A stretch of DNA of 64,000 bases from Mytilus edulis (Eukaryota): positions 83,142,001 to 83,206,000 of the forward strand of contig NC_092348.1 of the NCBI RefSeq assembly GCF_963676685.1, read 5' to 3'. Positions 10,296-33,381 of this stretch are shown in pieces (the stretch's first letter is position 1; each line of letters opens with the position of its first letter). A model generated the notes under the pieces. That model was given only the letters and a program-made list of their open reading frames with translations. It did no database searches and was not told where the DNA came from. The position numbers were made by a program, and so were the translations under genes.

Positions 10296-10369
10296 ATGGA
10301 GTTACTCGGAGTTATCTCTGTACCAGGATGGCTGTTGACCATTTTGCTTCTGATTCTAACATTTTGCCT
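10296..10369 (+). CDS. CYP exon 1 (MELLGVISVPGWLLTILLLILTFC, membrane anchor)
   Basis: ATG 10296; CT|gtaagt. Confidence 0.85.
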
Positions 10370-13300
10370 GTAAGTCTACTTTCATTTTATATCCAACTAT
10401 AAATTAAAGTTATCTGCGATTATGTATCCGTTAAATAGGCGAGCCGTCATATTTCATTAAGGATTATGTACCCTTGTGTTGATTCAATGTTTAAGTTCAT
10501 GTGGACCCTATGGCTAAAATGGACGTATTTTCACCTCAAAATTTTCTCTGAGTACAGGAAAACCTGTGCATCTGGAAAAGTTTTAAAGCATAGCATGCCC
10601 TAGATAAATAGAATTCAAATGCATTGTATGATTTAGAAAATTTATAACTTAACTGGATTTTGCCGTACACTTTTTTCGTCTCTGTAGAAGATGATAAAAT
10701 TGTAACCGGAGGGGTTTTTACGTTGTGTATTTTCTGTGTCAACTTTAACATATTTTACCCCAGACCGTGTAAAGAGTAGGTATAGGAATCCTGAGTCTCT
10801 GATCCTCCATATTTGGCTTTGCAAAACTTAACACTAGCAAGTTTTCATAGTTTATTAGCAAATTACATAATTCAACAAATATCAACAATTTGTAAAGATA
10901 AAAACATGAAACATGAATATAAAAAGCAAGTTAAAATTCACATAAAAGTGACATAGCTTAATCTGTCATTAGTGACATAGCTTAATCTGTCATTTTAACC
11001 TTTTGTCTAGATGCATTATAATTCTAGACACAATAGCGACATTGTGTCTAGATGCTGTGAAATGCATTACACCTTTCGTGTAGACAACACCTTTCGTGTA
11101 CACAGTGAGCAAGGTCTGTGCAAGACCAGTTAGTCAGCAAAGTCTGTGCTGGACCTTACGTGTAGACAGTGACTGAGGTCTGTGCAAGACCAGTAAGCTC
11201 TTACTAAAAAGCTAAAATAAGCGGTCGTTTAATCAACCAAATGGCTTATGAAAACAAGCCCAGTACAATTATTTAAATCATCAGTTATTTAACAAATACT
11301 ATTCAAATATAAACACTCTATAACTAAATTATAAGTTGCAAATTCAACAAAATGTGAGAATAAATTCAATGAATTATAGCACCATAATGTAACTAAATAT
11401 ATAAACATGTTAAACAACAATTTTTATCAATTATAATTCATATTACCAATAGGAATTAAATGTTAATTTTACAACAGTCCATTTTAAAGGGACATAATAC
11501 TGTTCTAAAACATAGGGTCGCCGTTACAAAATTAACAAACAGTTGAGTTTACCTTGATATGGTCCACTCAGGTACACAGTTTAAATAACCAATTAATGTC
11601 AGGTATCTATTGTCCATCTAATGTCCATGTCAATTAAAAATGCTCACTTTAATTTTTGCCTGCGGGAAGTTCTCAAACCTGTTTTCCCACTTAGTTTATT
11701 TTGGCACCTGGAGGAATGAAAAAAAAAAGTGCACGGCAAAATCCTGGTAAGTTTTTATTTTTCTGAAACATAAAACATATTTAAAATTCATTTATCTAGG
11801 GCATGCTATGCATGAAAAAAAATTACAGATGCGCAGGTTTGTCTGTACTCAGAGTAAATTTTGAGGTGAAAATACGGCCATTTTAGCCATAGGGTCCACA
11901 TGAACCTTAAACATATGGAAATTTTATAGAAAATCCACAGCCTTTATCCTTGTTATCTCATATTTGGCAATTTAATGACTGATAGATATAGGATTATTGG
12001 ATGCAGTGCTAGCATTGATTTCCTTATAACAAGTTTATTAATGTGGTTATTGGTTAAAACAAACATAAAATATGGACCAAATCAAGTACACCTTTTAGGG
12101 TGCGCTCGACTTCAGTGACTCAGACTTGGTTTATTTGCCACAAAGTCCTCTTGTTCTATTAAATGCAATGAAACAGTAAATAATAATGCTTTGCATCAAG
12201 TTTCCCCTTGGTATATGTACAACATGGACTATCTCTATTATTCATTATATCTGTAGTTTTGATACAATTGAAGTTTGAAAAGTTCGTACAAAAATGGCTA
12301 CAGAAGGGGTCATAAACCTTAATAATACATTCATGACAATGTATCGCTTAGGGACTTGAGAAAAACCCACGATAAACAAAATCATGAAAAATCATCCATG
12401 ATCATTTGGAGACACCAGTGGTGTATCATTGCTTAGGGTACTGCTCTTACATGTATATTCTGCTATAAAGATGTTATTTGATATATCCAAGTCAAATTGA
12501 GGTTTATTGTCAGGTGAGTTATTGTTTTGGAGATCCACTTCAGCATGTTCAGTTATTACCAATGTTATTTCAACTGATCGGGCGGAGCTTACTTTTTATT
12601 TAGCGTAAGGACAGTCTATTTGAAGATGTGCGTGATAAGGATGATGGCCGTTATAATTATAACTGATTTCTAATCACCTGTCAGTGTCACCAAACAGATA
12701 TACAATGAACTGAGTGTATGATATAGGACGAATAACTGGACACTTTATTGATGAGTTATCCTGAAATACCTGTCTATAGATGAACTGGTCTTTAATAAGC
12801 GAACCAGTTAAACCCCGCCCAGTCATGTGAAATAAATCAAGTAATAGCAGCCATGCGTATAGTTTGTATTGTATTATGAAAATTATTGATGTTGTAATGT
12901 TTATGCCCTTTGGGGCCCATAATGGGAAATAAAATATCTTCTTCTTCTTCTTCTTCTTCTTCTTCTTCTTCTTCTTCTTCTTCTTCTTCTTCTACTTCTA
13001 TACATCAAATTTAGAATGCAAAGATATTACAGTTTGTCGGTTTTCTTAAAGTTTAAGACCTAACGACATGTTTTTTTTCTATGGGACCTTCTATTTAAAC
13101 AAAGAAATGTGAGGTATATATAGAAAAGGAGGATATGGTATGATTGCCAATGAGACAACTCNNNNNNNNNNNNNNNNNNNNNNNNNNNNNNNNNNNNNNN
13201 NNNNNNNNNNNNNNNNNNNNNNNNNNNNNNNNNNNNNNNNNNNNNNNNNNNNNNNNNNNNNNNNNNNNNNNNNNNNNNNNNNNNNNNNNNNNNNNNNNNN

Positions 13301-16300
13301 NNNNNNNNNNNNNNNNNNNNNNNNNNNNNNNNNNNNNATATTACAGTTTGTCGGTTTTCTTAAAGTTTAAGACCTAACGACATGTTTTTTTTCTATGGGA
13401 CCTTCTATTTAAACAAAGAAATGTGAGGTATATATAGAAAAGGAGGATATGGTATGATTGCCAATGAGACAACTCTCAACCAGATACCAAATGACCCATA
13501 CATTAACATCTATAGGTCCAAACCGCATACTCAGCTATAGAAGGCCCAATATCTAACAACTTTTTCCTCTACATGTATATGCAGGGTTTATATTTATTTT
13601 AATTATGTTGTTTTATAGATATTCAAAATGGAAGCACAGTTTGTGGAAAAGGCTTGGTGTTCCTGGTCCAGAACCAACTCCTTTTCTTGGGATTTTGAAA
13701 GAATATTTTAAAAAGGTAATTAAATGGAATGTTCTTTTTATGTTAAAGGACATATCATTTACGCATGATTTGATAATTTTTTTTTAATTTTTCTTAAAAT
13801 TTTGCATTCACTACTTGCAAATCTAAACGTCTCACAAAAAGATCAGTTTGGTCGTCCGATTTTGAACTGCCATGATTTCCGACTTTCTCCTCATCACAAA
13901 GGTGACAAGTTGTGTTAGATTCAAGTCGGATAACAAGAAACATTATAAAACTTAACCGATAGCCAAACCAGTATGTAGGAGGAATAGCAATGCCCGTTCA
14001 ACGCCCCGACATACATGTATATAGATAATTGATCATATGACTGTCCTCCTCATGAACTTATTTTATCATTTAATTTAAATTTTGTATACATTATCCTGTT
14101 TGTATTTAAATGTCACTCACTTTCAATGGAAAACAATATTCGTATAAATAAAAGGGAATCATAATTATATCGCCAACAGCGGGGAATCACTATACATGTA
14201 AAAATAAGTTATACACATGTTTATGCATATTCAGGACGAGATATGTTACAGTGAAACCGTCTGATGTGATACTCTGATCGATAATTTATACATTTAAGAA
14301 TTCAATGCTTCGTTTTGAAATTTTATTGATGTCTTAAAGCGTTGACTTGAGCAAATCTTGCACAATTTTATTGTATAACCGTGAAATAACTATATATTTA
14401 TCAAGCCTTTCGGTAGTTTTCTGAACTTTTGGCTCCACGACGATTCAAAATTGTAGAATTGTATGAAACTGTTTTTGTAATATAATGATTGTCTTGAAAG
14501 CAAAATGTACGAGGATGGTCAATGAGGTATACATATACTGAATTAGCATGAAATATTTTCAACTGGACGTTAAGCAAACACCAATAAATTGATAAAACTG
14601 AACATTTCTAAACTCTTATAATCCTTATTTGGCAACATAACGACTGAAAATATATACATATATACGAACTACGTACACACAAGTAGCTTTCAACAATTAA
14701 AAGAAATTGCAATGAAAGGACTTCATTGATCAAACACATACATGTCTAACTTTTTAAGATAGTATATACTCCTAGAGAAAAAGAAATGATGGACAAAATC
14801 GCCATAATGATGATAACTGAAAAACCCAAAGATCGTTGACTTCAAAAGCTGAATAATACAATACATATAACGTTAGAGAAATAGACATATGAACCTATTA
14901 TGAGTGTCCGGATAAATTGTTATGTATTTGTACTCCCAATACAAAAATCGGACACAATCAACGTTAAACCTCTATATTGTAGGGTTCCTGTAACACAGAT
15001 TTAGAACTTGTGAGGAAATACGGCAATGTTGTCGGGTAATATAAAATTTAAACACAAACAATGATTGAAAATAATAAATAACAATCATCTGCACAAACAA
15101 ACCAATAGTCAAAGGAGAAGTTGCACCCCATGAAATATCATTCTGAAAAATTGCACTAAGCAACAAGAACCCAACTGGTCAGCAAATAGTCAGTAGAAGA
15201 TGTTCGATGATTAAACTCATCGACCCGTGTTATAAGAATGGCGAATGAACATTTTGAAAGTTTACCCGTCAATTAACAAACTAATTGTTAATATATAATA
15301 GTTTAATTGCTAAACTGTTAATATATATAACAGTTATACGAATACTTTTGCCATTGAAAGGAAACACAAGCCTCCATCTACCAGGAGACAAAATGCCGAG
15401 AGTTTCACCCAGTTGATGGAATCCAAAAAAGCCATTGCTTCTGCTGGAACCCCTGAACCTACCACCAATACAAGCGTAGATAACATCTGTCAGATACAAG
15501 CCAGGGATACAGTTAGTGGTATACCACTTACACCAACAAAATATCGTGGAAAACCAGAGGGACTCAACATCAAGACGAACACTGTCACTAGTCTGTACAA
15601 CTCCCAGAAGGCATGCCATCGCCAGTACTTCTATACTCCAACCAAACCTAGAAGTAAGCTTCGGAGAGGGTTTTGACATTGATGGCACCGACCTACTTTG
15701 CACACCATCATATACATCGCCAATATCCTTGCCAGATCCAAAGGCCATTCGAACTGCCTTCGCCTAACTAGAACGGTCAGACACTCCGTACCAACATTAA
15801 CCATCAGGTCGGAGCAAGATAAAAGGGAAAAGAATGTAGCAGATCCAACACTGCAAGAATAGGTTATTGTAGTCCGCAATATCTATTTAGATAACCGAAC
15901 GTTAAAACCCAACATCAATCAAACTTTTGCCTACATTTGTAAAGTAACAATAGTCCTTTAAATAGTAACAGCCATTTTTATTCAGAGTAAGGTCCTCTCC
16001 GCGGTCCGCATTTAAGCCATGCCAATGAGACAACTATCCAACATAGTATATCATTGATATATTTAATATCAAAGACAATGGTTTGGACTTGGTTGTGATA
16101 CCAATACATTAAACCATAAAGGTTAAATTGCAAGATTAAAAAAAAATGCATGCTCACCGAGGACTATCTTTTTAAAAGCACTTTAGCTTAGAGCAGGAAT
16201 TGTATCTTTGCCCTGGTTAAGCAAAATATCAGATCAGTAACATCGATCTCTCTTGATATATATCATATCACCCCTTGCCTGTTACAGTAGTTTCTAGAGA

Positions 16301-19300
16301 TTAAGGCGAACAGACGTAATGTTTATGCGTAAATTATATGGTCTGATGTTTCTCTTTGCCAATGTAATCAATAGAATAAAGAGAGGTAAAAACATAATAG
16401 AAAAAACTAAAAAGGAAATAACATATTTAGTGAATTCGTTTCAGGGTTTATCAGTGTCATATACCAAGTTTGTTAGTTGCTGATCCAGAAATGTTGAAAG
16501 TGATTTTTGTTAAGGAATTCTCTAACTTTCCAAACAGATTTGTAAGTGAAAATAAAACATTTACTAATCTATGTCAGATGAAAAGAAATAATATTCTAGT
16601 TAATGTATTTATATGATATATGCTTCATACTTTTTTAGTTTTAGAAATGCGAATTGATAACTTAAATTTTCAAAAGATTTTAAGATCACAGACAAACGCA
16701 ATATTTTATTTTTAAAATGATTTTTAACAATACGTCCAACAGCATACAATTCAGTTTGATATTATATTACTAGAAACTTATTGCAGATACCAGTAAAGCC
16801 GACAGAACGAATGTTAGCTGGTGTAGCTTTGGCCCAGGGAACACATTGGAAGTTTCTCAGAAGTACAATTTCACCGACATTTACAGTGGGAAAGTTAAAA
16901 CTTGTAAGTTATATCACAATCAAGCAGCAATAATCAATCATTTAGCATCAGTATAATAATAAAAGATTGGTTCAAGCTTTAATTGCTTAATAGAAGGATC
17001 AGTTGGTATTTAGAAAAATGGAAACTTTATAGTTAAATGGCTAATTCTGCTGTGCGAGTGTTTCAAACGTCGTTTCTGATAAAAGTTTTGTTGGATTTTT
17101 GTAACATGATCAGTTAGCATCATTATAATAAATATCAGTTGAAGCCTCAATTGGCAAAAAGAAGGTTCAGTTTGTATATAGAAAAATGTAAACTTTATAG
17201 TTAAGCTTCTATTTCTGCTGCGAGGAAGTGTTGTTGGATTGTAGCATCATTGACCTAGTATCTTCCCTTTCATTATGTATACGTGTTGCAAGCCTTCTAT
17301 ATGATAGAATTCCTCAGCATTTTGTTGTAAGCATGCGCGAAATAGCTGTGTGTTTTAACAACTTAGTCAATCTGGGAATTAACGAAACATATACTTGTCC
17401 ATAAGATACCCTTTTACAACACTAAAGGTTTGGAAGTAATGTTTGAATGATACTTAGTAACGTTTGATGAAGGACTTTTATCTTCGTGGGATGGAACTAC
17501 TCAGTTAGTTCTAGACACCACAAAACTGTCAAATATTTGTTTGTTCAAGTGAACTGATGATTTTCAAATTATACTTAGACATTGGAAAAGTGCCATTCGA
17601 CTTTCAGTTACGAATTAATGAATGTTGGCATTTGTTTATAATTAAAACTATGATTAAAGGTGATTGTTTTCGTTCTTTATTAATTTGGGTACTATAAATG
17701 TGCTTTATTACAATTAAAATTGAGAAAGGAAACGGGGAATTGTCAAAGCGACAACAACCCGACCATAGAGCAGACAACAGCCGAAGGCCAACAATAGGTC
17801 TTAAATGTAACGAGAAACGCCCGCATCCGGAGGCGTCCTTTAGCTGGCCCCTAAACAAATATGTATACTAGTACAGTCATTATAAATGGACGTCATACTA
17901 AACTCTGAAGAAACTAAAAGTAAAAATCTTGACTTGCGACAGGCGCAAAATTGCGGCGGGGTTAAACATGTTTTTTGAGATCTCAACCCTCCCCTATACT
18001 TCTAGCCATTGTAAAAAAACAAACGCACTTATACGCACAGTAAAACTCAGTTTAAGTCCGAGTCCGATACCAGAATATGAAACAAAAGAAAATAAACAAA
18101 ATGACAATTAAACATAAATAACAACAGACTAAGTAAACTAGCAGTTAATGACATGCAAGCTACAGACCTCAATTAAACTGATCGAAAAATTATGTCTTCA
18201 TCATATGAATTTGAGGCACAATCCCTCCTGTTAGGGGTATAGTACTATACCATCATGCATTATATGAGAAGAACATAACCTGTGTGTTAACAACTGGTAA
18301 TTAGTCTAGTTTTGATATAAACCACTTTTTTTATTCAGCTAGATATATAAGACCTTTTTATTATTTTTGCGCTCATTTTTGTTCAATGGAACTGTCAGTA
18401 TCATTTTATCGTAACATTATACAGTAATACAAAATTTTCAATCAATTAGAATAAAAAAAGTTTGATAGTACCAAACATTACGGGACAATGGACAAGGAAT
18501 AGAAAGATAAGACAATATCATTTTGCCCAGGGGCAATATATAGATTTTTTTCCCTAAAAATTACGAAAATACCGAGGAAAATATAAATATGAAATTACCT
18601 TATCGATAGCAAAATCAAAAGCTCAAACACACCAAATGAATAAAAACAACTGACTTCTGTCCCTTTCCTGACTTGGTACAAATATCCCGGTATGTTGAAA
18701 ATAGAGGGTTAAACCTGGTTTTATAGCTAGTTAAACCACTCACTTTAAAAGGTGTTACACATCTGACGATATTTTTGTTTGGTTTGTCCTCTAGATGGTA
18801 CAGAAAATCGAAAAATGTTGTCAAGCTTTGGTAGAAAACATCCACTCACAGCGGGGAGACAACGAACCTGTTGATATGAAAGAGTAAGTGTCATGTGATT
18901 TTTCATCCATAATGTCTTCAAATTTACACTTAATCAACAGAATTACCGAATCAAGATGGTACGAACTCTTACAGTGAATAATTTAAAAGTAAGGTGAAAT
19001 TGACAAAATGTAATTAAACTTCTAGTCTGTATAATAAATAAAATTACATGCATTGTCAAATAGATATAAGAAGACGTGGTACGAGTGCTATTAAGACAAC
19101 TCATCCAAGTCACAATTTGTAAAAGTAAACTATGTATTAAGGGCATACGATACAGTTTTGATCCCGTATTTAAATTTTGATGAAAATTTGCATGTAGGCT
19201 ATTTTTTACCTGAATAGATCAAATATGTAATGAAAAACATACCTTCGTGTGCTGCTTTTGTTTAAATTAAGGTTCATATTTAAGATATTTCTTCACGGAT

Positions 19301-22300
19301 TTGTGGACGTGTTTTTCATTTCGATAGAAACACAAAAGTTTTTTGATGTAAAAGATAAACACGATCTGTTTTTTGTTGAATTATTTGTAATTTATGTTGT
19401 TATGATATTGTAATTATTGTATTTATTTATGTTGGCCTAATTTATGTTGTATGGCCTGATAGTTGTTTACAGAATAATCTTAGAACTGTGCAGTTTAGAA
19501 ATCACTGGAACAATTACAGAATGATTGGAACTTTCCAGAATTATCCTAATAAAAGATGCGTTATATAAACTTCTACATTTTACTAGAAACTTCCATTGTA
19601 ACTTTCTAGGATGTTCTAGTATAGATTGTTCTAGAATTTTCCTTGACAATTATAAATATGCAGACACTAAAGTTAAACGCTCACTCTTGGACTTGGACTT
19701 AGACATCGATAGACATTAGTATTCACTTCATTTGGATTGACACTTTAATTCTACAAACAACATCATACTGGATTGTGACCGTAGTAGTGAACGTAATATT
19801 CAGATTGGATTCCGAAAGATATCCGGATACAGACAAAGATAAAAGATTGGACTCATATTTTGACAGTTAAGTTGACAGTAATATTTGTGTAATACTTCTT
19901 GTAAACTTTTGTATAATACATATTGTTAAATTTTACTATCGATTTGTGTCTTTTGTTGGCTACAATTTAAAGGCGATTTCTGGCCGTAACAGTAATTGGG
20001 GGCTCGTCCGGGATATTGAAAATATCTTATTCAAAATTTGTTTAGTAATTTTTATTATAACTAGCCAACAAAATTCTACAAAATGGCATTTGATGCCGGT
20101 AAATTTTTGAAAACGCCAGACCTGGAGGGGTTTGATAATTTAAAGAAAGAGGAGTTAGTGTTGCTTGCTAAACATCTGAAATTAGATTTTAAAGTATCTA
20201 TGAGAAAACAAATTATAAAAAATTTGGTAATAGACAAATTAGTTGACGCAGACATTTTAGGTGAAGAGGCTCTTGAACTTAAGGTCGAAAATATTGACGC
20301 CTTTAAATTAAAACAGCTTGAATTAGAACATGAACTCAAATTAAAAGAACTGGAGTTAGAAAAGAAGATGAACTTAAATTAAAACAGGCAGAACTGGAAA
20401 TGAAGGAAAGGTTGGAAATGGATAAAAAAGAAAAAGAAGGTGAATTTAAATTAAAAGAACTTGAAATGAAGTTAAAAGAACTTGAAATGAAGGAAAGACT
20501 AGAGATGGAGAAAATGAAAATTGAAATGGTCAAAGAAGAAAGCAACACTAAAGTCCAGTCGAAATCAGAATATTTTGATGCAGCAAAAAAAATATACGTT
20601 TGGTTCCCAGATTTTGTGAAAAAACAGTCGATAAATATTTTCCACAGTTTGAGAAAATTGCTCATAATTTGAATTGGCCAAAGCCATATTGGACTACAAT
20701 GCTACAAAGTGTTTTTGAGGGTAAGGCCGCTGAAATATACTCCGCACTTCCATCAGAAAAAAGTTCCGATTATGACATGGTCAAACAGGAAGTTTTGAAA
20801 GCTTATGAGCTAGTACCAGAAGCATATAGACAGATATTTAGATCTTATAAAAAGTTTGATTCGCAAACCTATGTGGAATTTGCTCGGGAAAAAGAAGATT
20901 TATTTGATAAATGGCTTACTTCAAAGAAAACAGATAACAATTTTGATAACCTAAGACAATTGATGTTATTAGAAGAGTTCAAACAATGTGTTCATTTAGA
21001 CTTAAAGACACATTTAGACGACAAAACTGTTGGGACAATACATGATGCAGCTGTAATTTCAGATAATTATACCCTTTCACATAAAAGAAGTTTCAAGGGT
21101 CAAAATGTTAATAATTCAAGTGGAAATTACAAAAATCAAAGCACTGAGCGTACTGTTGCACAGAATAAGAGTCAGTCCAGTTTTAATTTGTCTAGTCCAA
21201 CATTTGATACTTTTGAGAAGAAGTCACTGATTTGTGCTTATTGTAAGAAGAATGGTCACCTGATGGCTGATTGTTTTAGACTCCAGAAGAAGAATGAACG
21301 AGATAATAAGTCGAAGTCCTAGAGTAAGTGCCAAAACCAGATAAAACCTTTCGTTTCGTGACTGATTTCAGAAAAGTAAATTCAGTCTCAAAATCTGATT
21401 CCTATCCGATTCCAAGGATAGACGATTGTATTGACAACATTGGTCAAGCAAAATTTGTGAGCAAATTTGATTTGTTGAAAGGTTATTGGCAAGTTCCATT
21501 GACACAGAGAGCTCGTGAAGTATCAGCTTTTGTTACTCCAGACTTTGAAAAACAATTTAAACTTGCCGTTGATGCAAGCGATGTAGGAATTGGAGCTGTT
21601 TTATATCAAGAGACAGATGATAATGTTGAGAAACCTATATCATATTTTTCTAAGAAATTAGATAAACATCAGAAAAATTATTCAACTATTGAAAAAGAGT
21701 GTTTTGCAATGTTGTCAGCACTTCAACATTTTGATGTATATTTGAATCCCACTGTATATCCTATTCTTGTTTGTACTGATCATAATCCTCTCACCTTCAT
21801 ACATAAAATGAGAAACAAGAATCAGAGGTTGACTAGGTGGAGTTTATTGTTACAGGAATATGATGTAATTGTAAAACACATTAAGGGTAAAGATAATGTA
21901 ATAGCAGATGCTTTATCTAGAGCTTATTAAAACACTTTGTATATACTATGTATTTTTGTTCATATTATTCATGATAAGTTTTTGTTACACTAAAACTTCT
22001 TTTAAGGGGGGAGGTGTTATGATATTGTAATTATTGTATTTATTTATGTTGGCCTAATTTGTGTTGTATGGCCTGATAGTTGATTACAGAATAATCTTAG
22101 AACTGTGCAGTTTAGAAATCACTGGAACAATTACAGAATGATTGGAACTTTCCAGAATTATCCTAATAAAAGATGCGTTATATAAACTTCTATATTTTAC
22201 TAGAAACTTCCATTGTAACTTTCTAGGATGTTCTAGTATAGATTGTTCTAGAATTTTCCTTGACAATTATATATATGCAGACACTAAAGTTAAACGCTCA

Positions 22301-25300
22301 CTCTTGGACTTGGACTTAGACATCGATAGACATTAGTATTCACTTCATTTGGATTGACACTTTAATTCTACAAACAACATCATACTGGATTGTGACCGTA
22401 GTAGTGAACGTAATATTCAGATTGGATTCCGAAAGATATCCGGATACAGACAAAGATAAAAGATTGGACTCGTATTTTGACAGTTAAGTTGACAGTAATA
22501 TTTGTGTAATACTTCTTGTAAACTTTTGTATAATACATATTGTTAAATTTTACTATTGATTTGTGTCTTTTGTTGGCTACAATTTAAAGGCGATTTCTGG
22601 CCGTAACAATGTGACGTATGCCCTTAAGTAACCGTAAAAGAAAGGGAAAAAAAAAATGTTTGTATTTTCAGTTATCTGCGTCACAACTATGTCTACTTGA
22701 CATTTAATTGATTGATAATTATCAAAGGTACCAGGCTTATAATTTAATACGCCAGACGCGCGTTTTGACTACACAAGACTCATCGATGACGCCCAGATCA
22801 AAATGGTTAGAAAGTCAAACAAGTATAAAGTTGAAGAGCATTGGGGACCCAAAATTCCAAAAAGTTACGCCAAATACGGCTGTAGTAATCTATGCCTGAG
22901 ATAAAAAAAAATACATAGTATTTCGAATAGTTGATACTTTTGCTAACAGTAAATTTAAAAATTGAAAAACGGCTCAGATTTATAACACCATTGTCACGTA
23001 AGTTATAATGTCAGGTTAAGATCGTGTTTTTTCTTCCGTGAATCGGTCCAGTTGTTTCGAGTGTAGCAAGGTTCTTTTTCAATGAAATTGCTTGCGATCA
23101 AATTAATATACTGCAATTGCATAGTATAATAAATAAATTTAGTGTTTTTACTGCCTTCTGATTGGTTAAAATTATTAGTTTTATTTTCAATGTTGTCAAT
23201 TTTGATGGCGACACGCCCACTCTGACGTTTAGTATTCATACGCCAACATGTGTGTACGTTGTTATTGTTAATATAAATAATATAAAAAGTTCTTTGAGCC
23301 TTATTTTTTGATAGAAATTTATTTATAATGAATGGCAATAATTTATTTTGATTTTATTGAACCATAAAAGTAATTTTTGACTCTTCACATTTTACATAAT
23401 CTGCTTCGCGGATTATTCAATGTGAAGAGTCAAAAATTAGTTTTATGGTTCAATAAAATCAAAATAAATAATAGCCATTCATTAAATAGTGTCATCCACG
23501 AACAGTGATCAACAGTAACACTATGATTTTTTAGATTGTGTGGAGCATTTACTATGGATGTCATATCTAGTACAGCTTTTGGTATTGAGGTTAATTCCCA
23601 GAAAGAGCCAAATAATAGATTTGTTTTCTATGGAAAGAAAGCAGCCATTGGACAACTTGCCTCATCATTTGCTGTTTTTATCAGTAATTTATTTTATTAA
23701 CGACTGTATAAATCATTTGTTGTTGTCGTAATTATGTGAACCATATATAAATTAAGAACACAGATTATTGTTTGACATTCAGATCAACAGTATACAACAC
23801 TATAAGAATAAAGAGACGTGGAAAGTTTACGAATGAGACAACTGTCCAATAAAATTCAAATGAAGTGTATATATGTGAGTAATTATAGGCAACCATGCGG
23901 CCTTCAACAACGAGAAAAAAACATACTGTAAAGGCTAACGATTTTTTTTCAATTTAAGAATCGTTATAACCAATCAAAAACACATTGAGTATTCATATGC
24001 GAATTAATTTATTAATTCTATTTTTCAGTAATAAATTCATTGCAATCTTTTTATCGATCTGCTTATCAATCAATAACACTTCTGTTTTAAAAGTAAGGTG
24101 AAGATTCTATGTTAAACTTATTGCCATCTCGGAGTACATTAGATAACCCCGAAGTTTGGTGGTGTTGGTGTTGATCAGTATTTTGTTTGTAGCCTGTGTG
24201 CTGTTGCTTGTATTTTCGTATTGGCAATGATATTTTTTTTATCTTTATTTATTTTACTTAATGTGGTTGACTGTCCATTTGAATCTACTGCATGTTGGTG
24301 ATGATTTGTATACTAGTAAAGCATCCTACTAAACTGACTATAAAATTTGGAATATGTACTATTAGTTCAGTTGAACCCCAAATAATTGGAAATTTGCTAA
24401 AATTACATATTCAATCATATTTATTTTACCAATTAAAGCTTACTAACGTAATTATGTTGCAGTTTTACGGATGATTATTCTAAATTCCACATAAAAATTT
24501 CCACAGTGATGCACTCAGTATTCAGCCCTTAATTTATCATTTCACACTATCAAAGCTGTACCAGTACAGTGACACAAGAGATTTATAAACCGTATGGACG
24601 AATATATATTGAAAATGTTTCTATTTCAGTGATGTTTCCATTTCTGAAAAATATAGTTGGTACCATCCTGCTCCATGGAAATAGAGTTGGCAAAGATGTG
24701 ATTGAATTCTTCGACACTGCGCTACGGTCTGCTATTGATCTTCGAAAAGAAGGAAAGAATGAGGTATTGGAATTCAATGTGAATACAATAGATCAGAAAA
24801 TATATCGTTCATTTAAACATACGTGTAATATGTTTGATTCAGTTCCTCAATCCTATTTTTTTTTTAAATATACAATGTATATTAATGGTTTTTACGCTAA
24901 GTCTTTATTTTGGTTTTTGGATTTCAAACTGATTATATATTAATCCCCAATTGATCTTCCTCTAAGTTCAGTATTTTTGTGATTTTACTTTAAACTTTCC
25001 CAGCTATAAATTTTACCATGAGCAGCAGTCTGAATTTATTCAAGCTAAACGTGTTGTGCACACGAAAAGGATTTGGAGATTGATAAGGTAAAGAGGTCTT
25101 TAAAATGTGATTTTCGTGTGCACAACACCTTTTCACATGTTTAATTGAAGAAATTCAGACTGCTTCTAACTGTCAAGTTTACATTTGTGAAAGTTAATCA
25201 TAAATTCAGTGTTAAATCCCACAACCAAAAATAAAGCTTAAGCTGATCAACCATTATTATTGCTTCCTAAACGATTTCAGATTTGAATATAGGAAAAAAA

Positions 25301-28300
25301 AACTCATAAAAGATACTAGTCTTTGGTATTAGTCAATTTGTTTTTGAAATAAGGAAATAATTTCCGACGATACATTCGATACTAGTATCCCTTTAATAAG
25401 TTGGAATAATTATTTCAACTTCTTCTTTGGTTGCTTACAATGTACAAGTAAGCGTGATGTCATTAGTATTGTCGCATATATTATTGCTAATACCAAATTA
25501 TTATATATTATATAGCAATACCAAGATTTCCTACAATTAATGATGAACGCAAGACACAAGGACGAAAAAAGAGGTCAGAAATAAATCAATCATTTAAAAT
25601 AAAAATAAAAATGTGTGTTTTATGTAGTGTGACTATGGAAAATATATAATGAGCCCTGTACAACAGTAATAAAAAATAAAAAGTCCAAACAGACAACATT
25701 AGCAAAAACTATCATTTAACTAATGGTTGTGGAAAACGAAATTACGAAAAAAGTTCTTTTCCATTTGTGGCTTTAATATTTTATTACTACATTTTGTAAC
25801 TGCAAACAGTTGATTGTTATCAATCATTGCAAAAAGTTGGTTTTAAATACTTTTTGCAAGCATTTGATAACATTTTATGTTCACTTACTGTTGATCACTT
25901 CATATTTTAAGTTATATTTTTGTTTACTGGGAAATCACAGTAATTCATTGGAACCAATGTCATACTTTGGAATAATTCCATCTAGTTCTTAATTTATATG
26001 AACTAATGCAAAAATCAAGAAAAAGTCAAATTACTTTTACTTTGCCTTAATGTTATATGCTTGGAGACGCATAGATATACATGTAACACCATTATTTTTA
26101 AATGCATAAAAGGGTAGGGTAAACTTTAGTTTGATGTTGTTTATATCTATATCATCAATAGAATAGCAATATGTATTTAACTAATCATTTTTTCCAATAT
26201 TCAGGTTGCTATGTAGTCTAATTTTTAATAAAAAACATTTTGACAGATGATATTTTTGCAAAACTGCACTTTAGAAAAAAAAATCTGTAACCGAAATTAA
26301 TTGCAGGAGAAAGCAAAACAAAATTGAATTGAAATGGTAAAAGAGAAAACACCACTTAATCCGTTTCATTTGTCTAAAGTGTTGAGGATTTATGATCACA
26401 ATTCATTATATAAATCGTGTCTTAATCGACCACTTGTCTGCTAGACGAATGATACTCAAAGGATTTATACCATACATCATGTTGTATCGACTTTAGGGGT
26501 TAAGTCAAAAACATCTAAAAGAATCAATAATTGTGTTACAACTACAGTTGTATGAGTATGTACAGCAATCGACGTGTAATATATATTAAAAACCACTATT
26601 GGTATTAAGATATGAATCTAAATCAGGGAAGAGTGATATCAAGGACTGTAGAAACCGAAAAAAAAACACAAGTTACTTATGCAAATATAATCTTAAAAGA
26701 AAAGCAACAGATTTGAAGTCTTCATCTCAAAGTTTCATAATCTTCCATATTGAGCAATATTTTATACCTCATTACAAATTCAAAGGAACAACTAGTACCA
26801 ATTCAGGTAGTCTGTGTGCCTTGAACTACAAAGAAGAGGATAATTTGAGTAACTAAAAAACCCACCATCACTGGCGATGAACTAACAACAAAATACTGTT
26901 ATAAAATCTGTATTGTGAATAAAGAATGATATAAGATATTTAGATTACCATTGGTCATCAGATTTAGATAATTATGTGCAATATAACTTCTCTGTAGGAA
27001 CAATAATTTCAATTGAAATAGCCATAAAGAGACACAACTTTGCTTTGCTTTTTAATGTCTTTTAATACAATGTTTTTAATTATTAACATATTGAAGTGTT
27101 ACAAATGACTCATTTTAAGGCGACCATTACATTGTTGTGAACCATACGATGACTATAAGGGAAGCGTAGACCTGTATGTTTTATTTTTTAGGAAGATAAA
27201 ATGTACTTATTACATATGTAACTTTACTTATAAGTATAAGGTCAGCTACAAATTTAATTAGTAAATTTTATACTGATGAGGATAAAAGAGGGACGAAAGA
27301 TACCAAAGGGACGGTCAAACTCATAAATCTAAAACAAACTGACAACGCCATGGCTAAAAATAAAAAAGACAAACAGAAAAACAATAGTACACACGACACA
27401 AAATAGAAAACTAAAGAATAAACAACACGAACCCCACCAAAAACTAGGGGTGATAAGTAACACTACGCCACCTAAAGCTGAACTGCTGCTCAGTCTAGAT
27501 GGCCGAGTGGTCTAATGTGCTGAACACATTTTCGGCGGTGTTGTCTCGATATCAAAATCCGAATCCCGGCGAGGAAAGAACACAAATTTGCAAATCTAAA
27601 ACTGTTGGGCGTATATTTATTAGGGTCCAAAAAAGTTAAAAAGTATATTTTAACAAAACATATTCGACTAACAGGTCGAACAACTAATGTTCATAAACCC
27701 TGCTGACTGCCATTGACGGTTGCCAAATAAATTGATCATAAGATGTAACAAATAGAAAACAATAAACTTGCGGCTATGATGGTAAACCACAAACGTGAGG
27801 TGCTAAAATTTGTAAACAATATCAAGATTTCAACAACTAATGTCTCTTCCGTGATGTAAGAAATCGAACAGTATTTGGAAGGCCATATAATTTACCTCAA
27901 TTTAGCGGAGGGAAACGATAATACTAGCCCAAACGAAATAAATACAAACAAGTCTAAATTAAAAAAAAAACCAACGTTCAAACCTATGATTGTGTTGGAT
28001 AAAAACCAATTACATGTAAAACAAATTTCGTTGTAGAGGGGTCTAAATACTCCACAAGCAACATTTTCCAAAAGACCAAAAAAAAAAGTAAAAAAGTATT
28101 TAAGATTACTCATTGAACACTCCTTTATACAGGTTTAAATGAAATGGAGTTGAAATCAAACGCCATGACATTCTTCCTAGCAGGCTATGACACAACTGCC
28201 AATACACTATCATTTGCTTGTTATGCACTGGCCACTAACTCAGATATACAGAAGAAGCTTATTGAGGAGATCGATACCGTTCTTTGTGGGGTGAGTTCTT

Positions 28301-31300
28301 ATTTACTCGGTAGCCGATAACCATTGTCTAAATCAAATTATGTTTAAAAACTACGATTTGAATTAAGAATTGTCTCATTGCCACTCATACCACATCTTCG
28401 TACACTACATACACAAGAAAATAAATGAAAATAAAGTGGCCAAGCACTTTTAATACAAGGCAAATTAGTATAACAAAATACTTTTATTTCTTTAAATGTG
28501 TTCTTATGCTGCGGCAAATAGTTTTAAAAGGTAATGCAATCAATTGGCATTTTGAAAATCAATAACATTTTCTTATAATGCTATTTACAAACAAAACGTG
28601 AATAAAAAATAAATATATTGATACTGTGAAAGATAATTTGGTGACTACCTGAAAAATTACATGACATAAAAGTTAATTAAACACATCATGTGCAAAATCA
28701 GTTTGTTCTCTGTGGGCTTGTTCAGAGATCTCAAAGTTTAAAATCTAAATATCTAAATACTCACAACACTCGACGTTAAGAATTAAATGTGGGTTAAAAT
28801 GATATAAACGTACATATTCGGTCGATTCAAATTTTTTATTGCAAGAATTAATATGATTACAGCTTAAAACATTTGCTTTAACATAGGAAAAACCCCAATA
28901 TGAAGACATATCAAAGTTACAGTACTTGGACAGATTCGTGAATGAAGTTTTGCGTCTTTATGGAGCTGCAACTAGGTAAGTCATAAAAGTATATAAGAAA
29001 GCAGTAAAACAACAAAAAATACCGAGCCCTGAGAAAAATTCTCATAAAGTTCATAAGCAAATGGCAAAATCAAAACATCTAACACATCAAACAAATAGAT
29101 AACAACTGGGATATTCCTGACCTGATACAGGCATGAAGAGATATTGCTTTTTCAAACACTCATGAGTCAACGATTCATCAAGGGCATAAACCAAATGAAA
29201 TCTAGGGATCAACATTTTTACTCAACAATATTTTTTTTTGTAGTTTTCAACTATAACAATTTTATTACTGGAAAATAACTTTAAATTGTCAGGATATTAT
29301 GCACTGTCAATTCCGGCCCACTGATGGTAAACTAACTTTGTCAATAACTGGTCGTCTATTATTTACCTCGTTGTTTGTTAAATATATATAAATATAACTA
29401 AAAAAATATATAATTTTTATTGATTTATGTCAACTGATATGGAAGTATTCATGTTTCAATTTCTTCAATGTTTTGTAAAATTATTGTTGTAAAACATATT
29501 TGTTTTAAATAAGTCCCATCTGATTCTGCTGAAATGAATTTACAATATATAGTTTACGATTAATCGAATGTTATAAATCTATTTTGATTATACCACAAAA
29601 ATAATAAAAACAAAATCGTATTTGAGTGATCATGACCTACGTAGTAGACACATTCTTCTGATATGCATACCTTACCATCCAAACCAATACACACCAGTCA
29701 AATTGACAGTTAAAAAATTTCAAATAGTTAATAAATCTTTACAGTAGTCATTTATTATGGGGTGGTATGATCTAGGACAGCAAAAAAACACCGACCGTGT
29801 GTTGAGACATAATCAATTTGTATCATGCAATCAATTCCTGATGGTGACAAAAAAAAAACCAACAACATGTGAAGTGTATATTTTATTCGCTTTCCATAAT
29901 TCAATATACATTGCTGTTTGTATTCATTAGATACAGTCAATATAATGTAAAATTGCAGTAAAATAACTGCTTTTACAACCGTTTTGTAGATTTAATAGGG
30001 AATGTCAGAGCGATATCAAGATTAAAGACACGTTTATTCCCAAAGGAACAGACATTAGTGTACCTTCATTTGCATTGCACAGAAATCCTGAATTCTGGCC
30101 AGATCCTGACAAGTTTGATCCTGAAAGGTAAATGGCAGAAAATTTATGTATAAAATAAAATAATAATATGTGTTGTAATTGTCAATGAGACGATTCCTCG
30201 AAAGAAACCAAAATAACACAGACATAACTACAGGACACCATAATGACTTCAACAATGAGTAAAACAATACATAATAAATTATAATAAAAGGACCCGAAAT
30301 TACAAGTGTAAAACAATTCAGAAAACTAACTGCTTCAGGAATAATTTACAAAATAATAAACGAAAAACAAATATGATATACAGGAACAAACGAGAATCAC
30401 TGATTTACAGGTTCTTGACTAAGGACAGACACATACAGTTTATGGCTAGGTGAAACTAGTTTGAAAGTGTCCTATGTTGAGACAGTGGTACAACAGAACA
30501 CTATGAGAACCTGCTATAAAATCATTTGAAAAAGGCTTGACTCTTTGATGGATACAAATCAGAAATAAATATAACTAAAATACGTACTGGATGTGGCAGA
30601 ATACTTATACAACAACAAGACACTAAGTACAGATCTGAAACTACTGGCAGCCACTACATTTAGTGCATAGCCAGTAAAAACTTACATAGTCTATTTGTAG
30701 ACATAATATATGTTATATGTATTGTGTATTTACTGTTTAATTGCAATTATAACATTAATGATTTTTCTTAGCATTTATTATTGTCCTACCATAAATGCTT
30801 CCTCCCTTTAATGTATACGTGCTTTTTTGGATATCCCAGTACAAAGTGACGATGCATTCTTTTTTGATATTATCGTTTTAAAAGGAAACTATTTATATAT
30901 GAATAATGATTGATTTAGAAAAATTACGTTATCCATTCGTTTGATGTGTTTGAGCTTTTGATTTTGTCATATGATACCGGACGTTCCGTTTCAAATTTTC
31001 CTCAATTTGTTTTTTATTTTACATTTGTAGTAAAACAAATGACTTTTGTTATATTTGAAAGAGTATTGATCATTTTCATCATGACAGCAGATTTGAATTT
31101 AAGGAAAGGCAAGTCGACATAATGCCTGTGTGTTTAGCTCTTAGCACTGTTCGAACCTCAAGTGTAATAAATGCATTAGATAAATGCATTTGGCGACTGT
31201 ATTGGAAAAGTTCTTGTAATGGATATAGTTTTCATTTTAAATGTATTTTTCAAAGCTGAATACTATTTTATATGCATTATTAAAATGTTTGTTTAACTCG

Positions 31301-33381
31301 TTTAAAGACATATTCATTTGTAACAGATTTACTGAAGACAACATCTCAAAACGACCAGAATATAGTTTTATCCCATTTGGCATCGGTCCAAGAATATGCA
31401 TTGGTATGAGGCTGGCATTACTTGAGGCAAAAATGGCTTTGGTGTATATGCTTCAGAATTTCTCTTTCACCGTTTGTGATACGACGGAGGTACGTTAAAG
31501 TTTCTGACATGAAATTGACCTTACATCATTTATACCATAAATGATAGATGCAAGGTTATTTGGTTATTATATAAAATAATATGACTACCTTTTATATATT
31601 GTGCATAAAGATGGAATTATGCTAATCTGTAAATTATCTAATCTGCAATCAATTGCATATTCATGCTCAATATATCATGAACTCTAGATTCTACAGTCGA
31701 GGATAGGTATCACTTGGCCACCGAACGCTGAACTTGTATTCAGCCATGGTAGCCGAGTTGTCTAAAGCACTGGACACAGTGCAGGTGGTGTTTTGCTTTC
31801 GATATCAAAATATCATGAGTTTGATTCCCGGCGAGGGTTGAACAAAAATTTGATTCCGAAAATTTGTAGATTTATCATTTTTGTGCTGATATTTAGGGTG
31901 AATATGAATATTATAGGTGTTTTAACCGTGTATCACATTCACTTATGATCCAATGGAGAGATCTATCGTAGAGTGGTCACTTGTTTAGGCGTATCTTTAT
32001 ATGACGCCCGACAAGCAAAAACGACCCTTATGGCAAAAATTATGAATTATCAGATTTTGTATTAATTAATCAGAAAATACTAATGCCAACTCAATGTAGA
32101 AAAATGGGAACGAACGGTGAAAAACTAGTTGCGAAATTTCAATTTTGTTTACACATGAAAACGTGCTCTAACGTAAATTCAATATAACGTTTGAATCAAT
32201 TGATTTAAGTTTGCTGCAATTTACTAGTTTACTCTTCTCCTGGTGCTTTACAAAATGAATCCAGATATTCCTTTCTAGCGACGAATTTTTTTATATGGAA
32301 GTTCCTACCTAACACGTGCAAGTCCGACTGCATGAATAGCTACAGGACGAACCAACAGATCGAATAATAAAGGACAATGAAGAGTATCTATTTTTTTTCT
32401 AAACTTGTGTATTTTCCTTTTGTATTATTAATTCCTGATTTATCACGAGTAGCAATGACATAATGGTACTTTCTGATACCAAAGAATAGGTAAAATTGGT
32501 TTCTAATCTCGCCATTGCTAGGTAGTTTCATCGTTCTCTTACACTGTTACAAAACGACTTATCTTATTGATGATGATTTTCGAACGAATTCTGCTACATT
32601 AGATATAGTATCACAGTTTGATCGTCAGTATTGTTTAGCTTGACAAAATCTACCAAACGTTTAGTATGACCAACGAACAAGGCTTATTTTTCTAATATTG
32701 TCCAGTTAACACAAACAAATCAAGATAGTCAGTCAAATACCATTTTTTTTCACGTTTATTTGTTGGATTTCAAATATAAGAATATATTTCATTTTGTTAG
32801 CGATTTCATTTATTTTGCAGTGTTATTTTTGATATGATAAAAAATCACGAAGTTATATTATATATGCAAAACAATAACGTTAAGTTACATTACTCCATGG
32901 TAACGTTACTTAGTTACATAGATATAAGAAAATGTTATAGGAGTGCCAACGAGACAACTCTCCATCCAAGTCACAATTTGTAAAGTTAACCATTATTGGT
33001 AATACATTGATAAGACCCGTGAAGGATGAAAACGGTAGAACAAGGATGCAAATATTTTATTATCTACTTACCTGATTTTGTGTTTTTTTATATAGAAGAA
33101 TTTGTACACGACTTGATTTTATATTTTTTTTATATATAAATATAATATTTGTAATTTGTATATTATACAGATATTGTATAGGCGTTAGCGCTTTATTAAA
33201 ATAATTTATTCATTTATTAAATTCATTTTATATTTATGTAATGAAACATAGATTGTTAGATATTTTGAATTATTAAAAACATATTTTATTGCAGATACCG
33301 GTCACATTTGAAAAAGGATTTGTTCTGAAGGCACAGAATGGGGTAGTTTTGAATGCAAATCCTCGTCAAGACACACAATAG
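10296..33381 (+). CDS. CYP3A-like: Cytochrome P450, clan 3 (CYP3A-like), 14 exons, 1503 nt, 500 aa
   Basis: Exons 10296-10369, 13619-13715, 14983-15035, 16445-16541, 16787-16903, 18795-18883, 23535-23683, 24630-24763, 25516-25573, 28133-28290, 28887-28975, 29990-30127, 31327-31489, 33295-33381. All introns are GT-AG and phase-consistent. Motifs: N-terminal anchor, PGPEP, WKFLR (WxxxR), AGYDTT (I-helix), EVLR (ExxR), FDPERF, FGIGPRICIG (heme Cys). Confidence 0.95.
10495..11906. mobile_element. Non-autonomous DNA transposon with about 185-bp imperfect TIRs and TTAA TSD (Kolobok-like), in CYP intron 1
   Basis: TTAA-gttcatgtggaccctatggctaaaatgg... and ...ccattttagccatagggtccacatgaacc-TTAA; inverted similarity of about 10495-10678 with 11722-11906. 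Confidence 0.85.
10701..11528. mobile_element. Solo LTR (828 bp) nested in the TTAA element
   Basis: TGTAAC...GTTACA termini; AAAT duplicated at 10697-10700 and 11529-11532; internal short tandem duplications. Confidence 0.75.
12937..12993. repeat. (TCT)n microsatellite, probably a LINE 3' tail
   Basis: About 19 TCT units directly after AATAAA. Confidence 0.9.
13162..13337. other. Assembly gap (176 N) flanked by identical 138-bp sequences
   Basis: 13024-13161 equals 13338-13475. Confidence 0.95.
13619..13715 (+). CDS. CYP exon 2 (YSKWKHSLWKRLGVPGPEPTPFLG...)
   Basis: tag|A...AAG|gtaatt; Pro-rich hinge. Confidence 0.92.
14983..15035 (+). CDS. CYP exon 3 (GSCNTDLELVRKYGNVVG)
   Basis: 53-nt exon, tag|GG...GG|gtaata; KYG motif; phases fit both neighbours. 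Confidence 0.9.
16445..16541 (+). CDS. CYP exon 4 (VYQCHIPSLLVADPEMLKVIFVKEFSNFPNRF)
   Basis: tcag|G...TTT|gtaagt. Confidence 0.92.
16787..16903 (+). CDS. CYP exon 5 (...HWKFLRSTISPTFTVGKLKL)
   Basis: gcag|ATA...CTT|gtaagt; WxxxR and SPTF. Confidence 0.93.
17712..18300 (+). repeat. Interspersed repeat in CYP intron 5
   Basis: GC-richer block (gcgacaacaacccgacc...gctggcccctaaac) sharing gacttg..acaggc and catcatatg segments with other repeats in the window; no coding signal. Confidence 0.5.
18795..18883 (+). CDS. CYP exon 6 (MVQKIEKCCQALVENI...VDMK)
   Basis: ctag|ATG...GA|gtaagt. Confidence 0.9.
19398..19991 (+). repeat. 5' LTR
   Basis: Direct repeat of 22015-22608; HSE array, TATAAATA at 19651. 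Confidence 0.97.
19527..19658 (+). promoter_or_regulatory. Heat-shock-element cluster plus TATA box in LTR U3 (copy at 22144-22275)
   Basis: GGAAC-TTTCC-AGAAT (19527-19541) and GTTCT-AGAAT-TTTCC (19628-19642) are perfect 3-unit nGAAn inverted arrays; further partial arrays at 19585 and 19603. Confidence 0.7.
19997..20014 (+). promoter_or_regulatory. Primer-binding site complementary to tRNA-Pro
   Basis: TGGGGGCTCGTCCGGGAT, the canonical 18-nt tRNA-Pro PBS, 5 nt after the 5' LTR. Confidence 0.92.
20083..21322 (+). pseudogene. gag: gag with two frameshifts (coiled-coil KELE repeats, SCAN-like capsid region, CCHC knuckle)
   Basis: ORFs 20083-20382, 20400-20672 and 20600-21322; LVPEAYRQIFR...LLEEFK; CAYCKKNGHLMADC; shifts in A-runs at about 20360 and 20585-20592. 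Confidence 0.88.
21328..21930 (+). pseudogene. pol: pol remnant: N-terminal RT fused in frame to RNase H; protease, integrase and YxDD core missing
   Basis: PKPD..RFVTDFRKVN..YPIPRIDD..KFDLLKGYWQV..AFVTP joined to DFEKQFKLAVDASDVGIGAVL...EKE...TDH...ADALSR*. Confidence 0.92.
22015..22608 (+). repeat. 3' LTR
   Basis: Direct repeat of 19398-19991, preceded by PPT AAGGGGGGAGG. Confidence 0.97.
22710..22970 (-). mobile_element. Retrozyme-family repeat copy with degenerate hammerhead (antisense to CYP)
   Basis: Reverse complement reads gcgtca-TCGATGA-gtcttgtgtagtc-AAAA-cgcgcgtc-tggcgt; flanks match 50276-50791. Confidence 0.75.
23327..23483. repeat. Near-perfect foldback of about 157 bp
   Basis: aatgaatggc...tttgactcttcacatt / aatgtgaagagtcaaa...gccattcatt, centred on ataatctgcttcgcggattat. 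Confidence 0.9.
23535..23683 (+). CDS. CYP exon 7 (LCGAFTMDVISSTAFGIEVNS...)
   Basis: ttag|A...A|gtaatt. Confidence 0.93.
24630..24763 (+). CDS. CYP exon 8 (MFPFLKNI...DLRKEGKNE)
   Basis: tcag|TG...GAG|gtattg. Confidence 0.9.
24993..25195. mobile_element. Foldback MITE in CYP intron 8
   Basis: agcagtctgaattt/aaattcagactgct and gtgttgtgcacacgaaaa/ttttcgtgtgcacaacac inverted pairs. Confidence 0.7.
25516..25573 (+). CDS. CYP exon 9 (QYQDFLQLMMNARHKDEKR)
   Basis: atag|CAA...G|gtcaga; DFLQLM motif. Confidence 0.9.
27285..27455 (+). repeat. Dispersed repeat family B (other copies: - strand about 4890-5170, 38220-38440, 43410-43722; + strand about 55770-55910)
   Basis: aaagagggacgaaagatacc..gggac..tcaaactcataaatc..ctgacaacgccatggctaaaaa recurs in both orientations. 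Confidence 0.8.
27490..27610 (+). mobile_element. tRNA-derived SINE (second family)
   Basis: A-box tggccgagtgg, degenerate B-box ccgaatcccggcgagg; homologous to 31741-31900. Confidence 0.65.
28133..28290 (+). CDS. CYP exon 10 (I-helix, FFLAGYDTTAN)
   Basis: acag|GT...GGG|gtgagt. Confidence 0.95.
28887..28975 (+). CDS. CYP exon 11 (K-helix, YLDRFVNEVLRLY)
   Basis: atag|GAA...AG|gtaagt. Confidence 0.95.
29990..30127 (+). CDS. CYP exon 12 (IPKG...LHRNPEFWPDPDKFDPE)
   Basis: gtag|A...AG|gtaaat. Confidence 0.95.
31327..31489 (+). CDS. CYP exon 13 (heme-binding PFGIGPRICIG)
   Basis: acag|A...GAG|gtacgt; ORF 31241-31498. Confidence 0.97.
31741..31900 (+). mobile_element. tRNA-derived SINE (second family)
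   Basis: tagccgagttg A-box, gagtttgattcccggcgagg B-box. Confidence 0.65.
33295..33381 (+). CDS. CYP exon 14 (IPVTFEKGFVLKAQNGVVLNANPRQDTQ*)
   Basis: gcag|ATA...TAG; AATAAA at 33556. Confidence 0.88.
   Translation: MPVTFEKGFVLKAQNGVVLNANPRQDTQ

Follow-up and report, generated by a model that had tools for sequence, protein, structure and literature searches.

The window, a stretch of 64,000 nucleotides of Mytilus edulis DNA, shows an LTR retroelement inside a cytochrome P450 (CYP) gene. An earlier note had read the LTR U3 as a stress-activated promoter packed with heat-shock elements (HSEs), which could drive heat-induced, truncated CYP transcripts. The locus therefore raises the questions of whether the U3 contains a heat-inducible promoter, whether this promoter belongs to the whole family of the element or only to the window copy, and whether it concerns the gene in which this copy lies.

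Structure of the element and of its insertion site

The element, of 3,211 bp, is located at 19398-22608 (+), in intron 6 of the CYP gene (18884-23534) and sense with it, and its features are collected in Table 1. Its paired LTRs show 6 differences (1.0%). The features of Ty3/gypsy elements are present: a TG...CA LTR pair, a target-site duplication (TSD), a primer-binding site (PBS), a polypurine tract (PPT), gag, RT and RNase H, the latter extending to the PPT. The PBS is one that we take to be of the tRNA-Pro type, and a tRNA gene search of the 64-kb window found none. Compared with two full-size sisters, the window copy is without about 2.3 kb and 0.4 kb of internal sequence, and because of this loss it is regarded as non-autonomous. 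The full-size sister L032 shows integrase matches (H2C2, core, C-terminal) ahead of RVT_1 and RNase H, and a SCAN-like capsid C-terminal domain with an E value of 5e-11 (8e-11 in the window copy). A SCAN-type capsid domain and an integrase located before RT-RNase H are also described for the Gmr1-like clade, in passages of PMC6238403 and bioRxiv 10.1101/2025.03.03.638093. From its sequence, the element is classified as an internally deleted, Gmr1-like Ty3/gypsy element.

The insertion target is a MITE-like repeat from whose middle about 350 bp had been deleted, and only its terminal bases (about 22613-22628) are found after the 3' LTR. A second copy of the exon-6 part was found in none of the 40 scored among the 3761 candidates of the genome search, the left flank being a high-copy repeat.

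Table 1. Features of the retroelement, its LTRs and the host gene (positions in the window)
Feature	Position	Strand	Remarks
CYP3A-like host gene	10296..33381	+	500 aa in 14 exons, free of internal stops; hand-modelled exons, only the 7-8 splice read-supported
MITE-like high-copy repeat, left part	19137..19397		Insertion target; 3761 candidates in genome search
Target-site duplication	19394..19397; second copy 22609-22612	+	ATGT, flanks the element
5' LTR	19398..19991	+	594 bp, TG...CA ends
Distal HSE	19527..19541		Perfect three-pentamer, GGAACTTTCCAGAAT; 19536 is a spacer base, C/T across copies, cores kept
HSE array	19580..19594 (core from 19581)		One mismatch in window copy; perfect in 31/73 copies
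HSE array	19603..19617 (core from 19604)		One mismatch
Proximal HSE	19623..19642		Perfect three-pentamer 19628-19642 (GTTCTAGAATTTTCC) plus one degenerate pentamer (one-mismatch core from 19624)
TATA box	19651..19660	+	TATAAATA in this 5' LTR alone; the 3' LTR (22268) and nearly all copies have a TATATA-type box
Initiator-like TCACTCT	19681..19687	+	Predicted start near A19683 (22300 in 3' LTR)
Likely poly(A) hexamer position of the family	19915..19920 and 22532-22537	+	Weak variant AATACA in window copy
Primer-binding site	19997..20014	+	83 exact matches genome-wide
gag	20083..21322	+	In three frames (broken); SCAN domain (E 8e-11) and zinc knuckle (zf-CCHC weak)
RT fragment (RVT_1) and RNase H (RT_RNaseH)	21328..21930	+
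Polypurine tract	22004..22014	+
3' LTR	22015..22608	+	594 bp; matching HSE cluster (22144-22158, 22245-22259)
CYP exon 7	23535..23683	+	In-frame ATG 23554, Met183 of 500

The family in the genome

A 17-base word of the LTR has 276 exact matches in the genome, and 64 of the 70 PBS sites examined belong to the family of the window element. The 149 BLAST rows were reduced to 113 unique full-length LTRs, partial matches being dropped, including L060, which has no U3. TSDs of 4 bp are shown by 26 of 34 sister elements and by five of the seven LTRs classed as solo. The two LTRs are identical in 10 of the 34 sister elements, and the median is three differences. The family was mobile recently, and the window copy, with its six LTR differences, is older than most copies. 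Tandem family copies were also observed (L013-L015, at G000:C6:21.11-21.13 Mb; L016-L017; L084), and some of them use one common middle LTR, giving three LTRs with the PPT before and the PBS after. One metagenome locus, L159, belongs to the family; it is 90% alike and contains three perfect HSEs.

Heat-shock elements of the LTR

The two perfect three-pentamer HSEs pointed out in the earlier note are present in the 5' LTR, together with the partial arrays beside them, whose one-mismatch cores start at 19581, 19604 and 19624. The LTR contains two perfect HSEs and six HSEs with one mismatch or better; 1000 dinucleotide shuffles yield 0.009 and 0.20 on average (P<=0.001). As background, flanking DNA of 228,630 bases holds four perfect HSEs and the window without the element (60,790 bases) holds none, from which the chance of at least two perfect HSEs in 594 bp is about 5e-5. 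The 64 kb window contains four perfect HSEs, all of them in the two LTRs of the element, those of the 3' LTR having their cores at 22145 and 22246. None of the six inter-LTR differences falls in an HSE core, and the retention of the HSEs in both LTRs, also claimed before, is thus borne out. The several further GAA units that had been listed (19472-19519) do exist, but they form no in-phase array, and 25 or more of the 73 copies are without the unit at 19472. In the family, at least one perfect HSE is found in all 113 full LTRs and at least two in 104 of them.

TATA box, predicted start and likely poly(A) signal

The HSEs had been placed directly upstream of TATAAATA at 19651; there is a TATA box at this position, but its TATAAATA form is found in one of 73 LTRs and is absent from the 3' LTR. 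The distance from the proximal HSE to the TATA box is 9-13 nt in 69 of 73 copies. By the initiator consensus, most copies show an Inr-like A 30-34 nt past the TATA T, and 14 of 69 show none. Two other candidate signals of the U3, TATATAAA at 19562 as promoter and AATAAA at 19548 as poly(A) signal, were rejected, since about 30 or more of the 73 copies show changes in each. AATAAA or ATTAAA is found about 75 nt before the LTR end in 104 of 113 LTRs, and this hexamer is likely the poly(A) signal of the family. The AATACA variant is found at this position in two of 113 LTRs, both belonging to the window element, in which a GT-rich tract follows the hexamer position.

An HSF-driven, heat-inducible promoter of the family, located in U3, is the probable reading of this arrangement. 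HSF trimers would bind the four HSE arrays under heat or protein damage, transcription would start about 30 nt past the TATA box (about 19683), as at hsp70, and the transcript would be terminated by the poly(A) signal, some 75 nt short of the end of the LTR. The benefit of such a heat switch would go to the element. Matches to the HSF DNA-binding domain were found in the genome. The stress-activated LTR of the earlier note is supported at the level of the family, with HSEs in all copies, the selection signature described below and the 9-13 nt to the TATA box, and only poorly in its CYP part.

RNA reads

Four raw RNA runs without stated treatment were mapped to 19992-24900; the sampled animals may have been unstressed and need not carry the insertion. 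In these runs the LTR bins show a low depth of about 24-88x with both directions summed, the depth of U3 is about that of R, neighbouring repeats are as deep or deeper, and neither a step-up nor a start pile-up is found behind the TATA box. Reads of X21-X23 lean toward the direction that is antisense in X24. Reads of the family are scarce and for the most part 90-95% alike, which indicates that they derive from other copies; 3-4% of the mapped reads are 99+% alike. Reads of three of the four runs join the LTR end to the PBS. The RNA signal over the family looks like passive read-through; coming from runs without a stated heat state, it weighs neither toward nor against induction.

The CYP gene

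The host gene encodes a protein with the CYP motifs AGYDTT (306, I-helix), EVLR (362, ExxR), PERF (416) and FGIGPRICIG (435, heme), and the top PDB matches of one of its exons are CYP3A4/7/5. The 3' LTR is, as had been claimed, sense to the CYP gene and 0.9 kb upstream of exon 7 (927 bp), and the in-frame ATG of AFTMDV is found in this exon. On this layout rests the proposal that, under heat, the 3' (or 5') LTR reads into the CYP gene and yields truncated transcripts or a dampened allele. The HSEs and TATA box of this same-sense insertion are intact, there is a donor-like site at 22998, and, the poly(A) hexamer of either LTR being weak, transcripts could continue past it. However, the routes tested from the 3' LTR to exon 7, through three donor-like sites, pass 7-14 upstream ATGs, none of them open to Met183, and the intron contains four AATAAA/ATTAAA hexamers ahead of exon 7. 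The exon 7-8 splice is found in reads of two of the four runs and an LTR-to-exon-7 joint in none of them, which is weak evidence against the proposal, as carriage of the insertion by these animals is unstated and so small a share of the mapped reads (3-4%) is 99+% alike. The product would lose residues 1-182, and a P450 without its membrane anchor and N-terminal third would not work. The heat-driven truncated CYP of the earlier note is thus poorly supported: a shortened CYP protein from the window copy is unlikely, a functional truncated P450 is very unlikely, and heat-driven effects on this gene as a whole we hold to be unlikely. They are compatible with the HSF-driven family promoter but not required by it, and the location of the element in the CYP gene is most likely incidental. 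On this reading the window copy is an internally deleted passenger in the CYP intron, and it may be silenced. Transcriptional interference or read-through may nevertheless occur, favoured by the weak poly(A) hexamer of this copy. The hexamer could spare the CYP transcript a premature end, and an intronic copy in the same sense would persist more easily for it; it could also let heat-induced transcripts enter the intron.

Some other features of the gene were observed. Just before exon 7, a repeat at 23108-23484 contains an inverted repeat with 66-nt arms (23326-23391 / 23419-23484) and is well covered by RNA reads of other loci. Exon 9 as modelled (25516-25573) ends at the unusual donor GAG/GTCAGA. 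Intron 1 shows a short direct duplication (13032-13161 and 13338-13480) flanking an N run, and intron 3 a 120-aa open frame at 15314-15676, in a GC-richer stretch.

Signs of selection on the HSE cores

Variation was analysed in 73 LTRs, about one per insertion: 66 are 5' LTRs and seven were classed as solo, although two of the seven probably pair, as 3' LTRs, with LTRs that the set already contains. Variants found in at least two copies affect two of 30 GAA/TTC core columns, against 46 of the 155 remaining U3 columns (P=0.006) and eight of 20 flanking "n" spacer columns (P=0.009); when at least three copies must share a variant, none of the 30 core columns is affected, against 33 of the 155 (P=0.003). 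For the core depletion, P is 0.002 in a base-matched permutation. In contrast, singleton mutations are not depleted in the cores (8/30 vs 57/155, P=0.40). When the LTRs were realigned with MAFFT and the cores set on seven different reference copies, the result was kept with all seven (P=0.003-0.019). With two of these seven the test on at least three copies is not significant (P=0.10 and 0.21), and with the same two the singletons are depleted too (P=0.019 and 0.043). Since the shared variants avoid the cores and the singletons mostly do not, selection on the HSE sites is indicated, and the copies' own variation points to HSE cores that were selected during the spread of the family. Mutations after insertion would be neutral, while replicating lineages would need the HSE cores, and copies with intact HSEs would have left more descendants.

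Selection reveals a function and not its trigger, and something besides heat could account for the binding or selection of the arrays: HSF acting in germline or embryo development, NFAT5/TonEBP (osmotic), or Rel/NF-kB. By its consensus, 69 of 73 LTRs contain one or more NFAT5-type words, the distal HSE looks like a kB site, and NFAT5 and Rel read overlapping TTTCC words. However, the TTTCCA base on which these factors depend at the distal HSE reads T rather than C in 26 or more of the 73 copies, with every GAA/TTC core retained, the canonical kB word is found in one of 73 copies and the STAT word in nine of 73, and the conservation tracks the 5-bp period of the pentamers. Variation spares the pentamer cores but reaches the bases that would set NFAT5- or Rel-type sites apart, which weakens these two readings, and a trigger other than heat appears quite improbable. 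U3 regions evolve through short duplications, and HSE-like words could also be a neutral by-product of TTCYAGAA-type duplications, common to the copies by recent descent, as these are 82-100% alike and hence not independent; but this is highly improbable, being largely refuted by the inherited variants, which lie around the cores and not in them, by an array that a subfamily has in perfect form, and by the TATA spacing, which is kept.

Other LTR families and host hsp70 promoters

The HSE cluster was also considered as a trait of all Gmr1-like elements, and this was rejected. A perfect HSE is found in none of the six non-family Pro-PBS LTR ends of the genome (70 PBS sites examined), and in none of 42 non-family Pro-PBS metagenome loci, of which 21 have 700 bp upstream and most are unverified as Gmr1 members. 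Unlike the capsid domain and the gene order, the cluster is thus not a clade trait among the Pro-primed LTR ends examined; these are without it, and the gain of HSEs is family-specific. The genome contains at least two other Pro-PBS LTR families, without HSE clusters (L054, L076, L080 and L107; L052; L081).

Seven intronless hsp70 loci of the host were compared. In three of them an imperfect HSE of five pentamers precedes TATATATAAA by about 10 nt. A fourth has one near-perfect HSE, and in the other three, of which one has a misplaced start, the 800 bp examined contain no HSE. The HSE-TATA spacing of the LTR resembles that of the host hsp70 promoters. Capture of the U3 from an hsp70 promoter was rejected: local alignment against five promoters gives scores of 24-33, and the shuffle maxima are 34-37. 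As the scores are below these maxima, the LTR is not considered homologous to the five promoters. Intronless hsp70 genes (L110, L113, L115 and L117, at G000:C8:35.80-35.83 Mb) form a cluster which includes a divergent pair, and in L110 and L113 the proximal HSE-TATA is located about 580-610 bp before the ATG.

Discussion

The closest comparison is with Macrostomum lignano, as described in passages of PMC12801592. In this species six of 137 LTR families contain HSEs and four of these six are strongly heat-induced (mean log2 of 8); all three families with at least two HSEs are induced, two single-HSE families are not, and mutation of the HSE abolished the heat response of the one promoter tested. 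The HSE-bearing families include Mlig-id38 (Gmr1/Osvaldo; induced) and Mlig-id115 (Mag). The family described here resembles the Ty3/Mdg4 LTRs of these passages (PMC12801592) in its nGAAnnTTCnnGAAn arrays upstream of the start, the family-specific gain and an intertidal host, the last being likely in our case. It differs in belonging to another phylum and in showing two or three perfect arrays together with near-perfect ones, against one HSE in the Mlig Gmr1 family as given there. Moreover, induction was measured in Macrostomum, whereas here it would follow from selection on copies.

In the passages of PMC13602373 and PMC12801592 that deal with ONSEN of Arabidopsis, this element also has an HSE-rich LTR whose natural variants keep HSF-compatible motifs, but it is a plant Ty1/copia element with demonstrated induction and HSF dependence. 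The Helitron-borne HSEs of Caenorhabditis, in the parts of PMC6927752 and PMC12801592 that concern them, are likewise spread through the genome as HSF sites by a transposon family; however, these are DNA transposons. Among bivalve genome papers, PMC9210306 and PMC10137854 treat Steamer-like elements and heat stress separately in their main-text passages, and these passages contain no HSE-bearing LTRs.

A far-reaching extension of the HSF-driven promoter would be that the recent family has spread at least 276 predicted HSF promoters of hsp70 strength, that heat waves mobilise the family and rewire neighbour genes, and that heat read-through suppresses the CYP gene, the weak poly(A) signal sparing its transcript at rest, with an allele-specific heat-by-pollutant sensitivity as the result; taken as a whole, we regard this as decidedly unlikely. 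The CYP angle matters only if carriers show an allele-specific effect. Since the family is young and its host likely intertidal, the link between heat and transposition is directly testable. No HSE-driven LTR retrotransposon of a mollusc was found in the open-access literature, supplements aside. If confirmed, the family would be a further, independent LTR retrotransposon that has adopted the heat-shock response, and the first case in a mollusc found in that literature.
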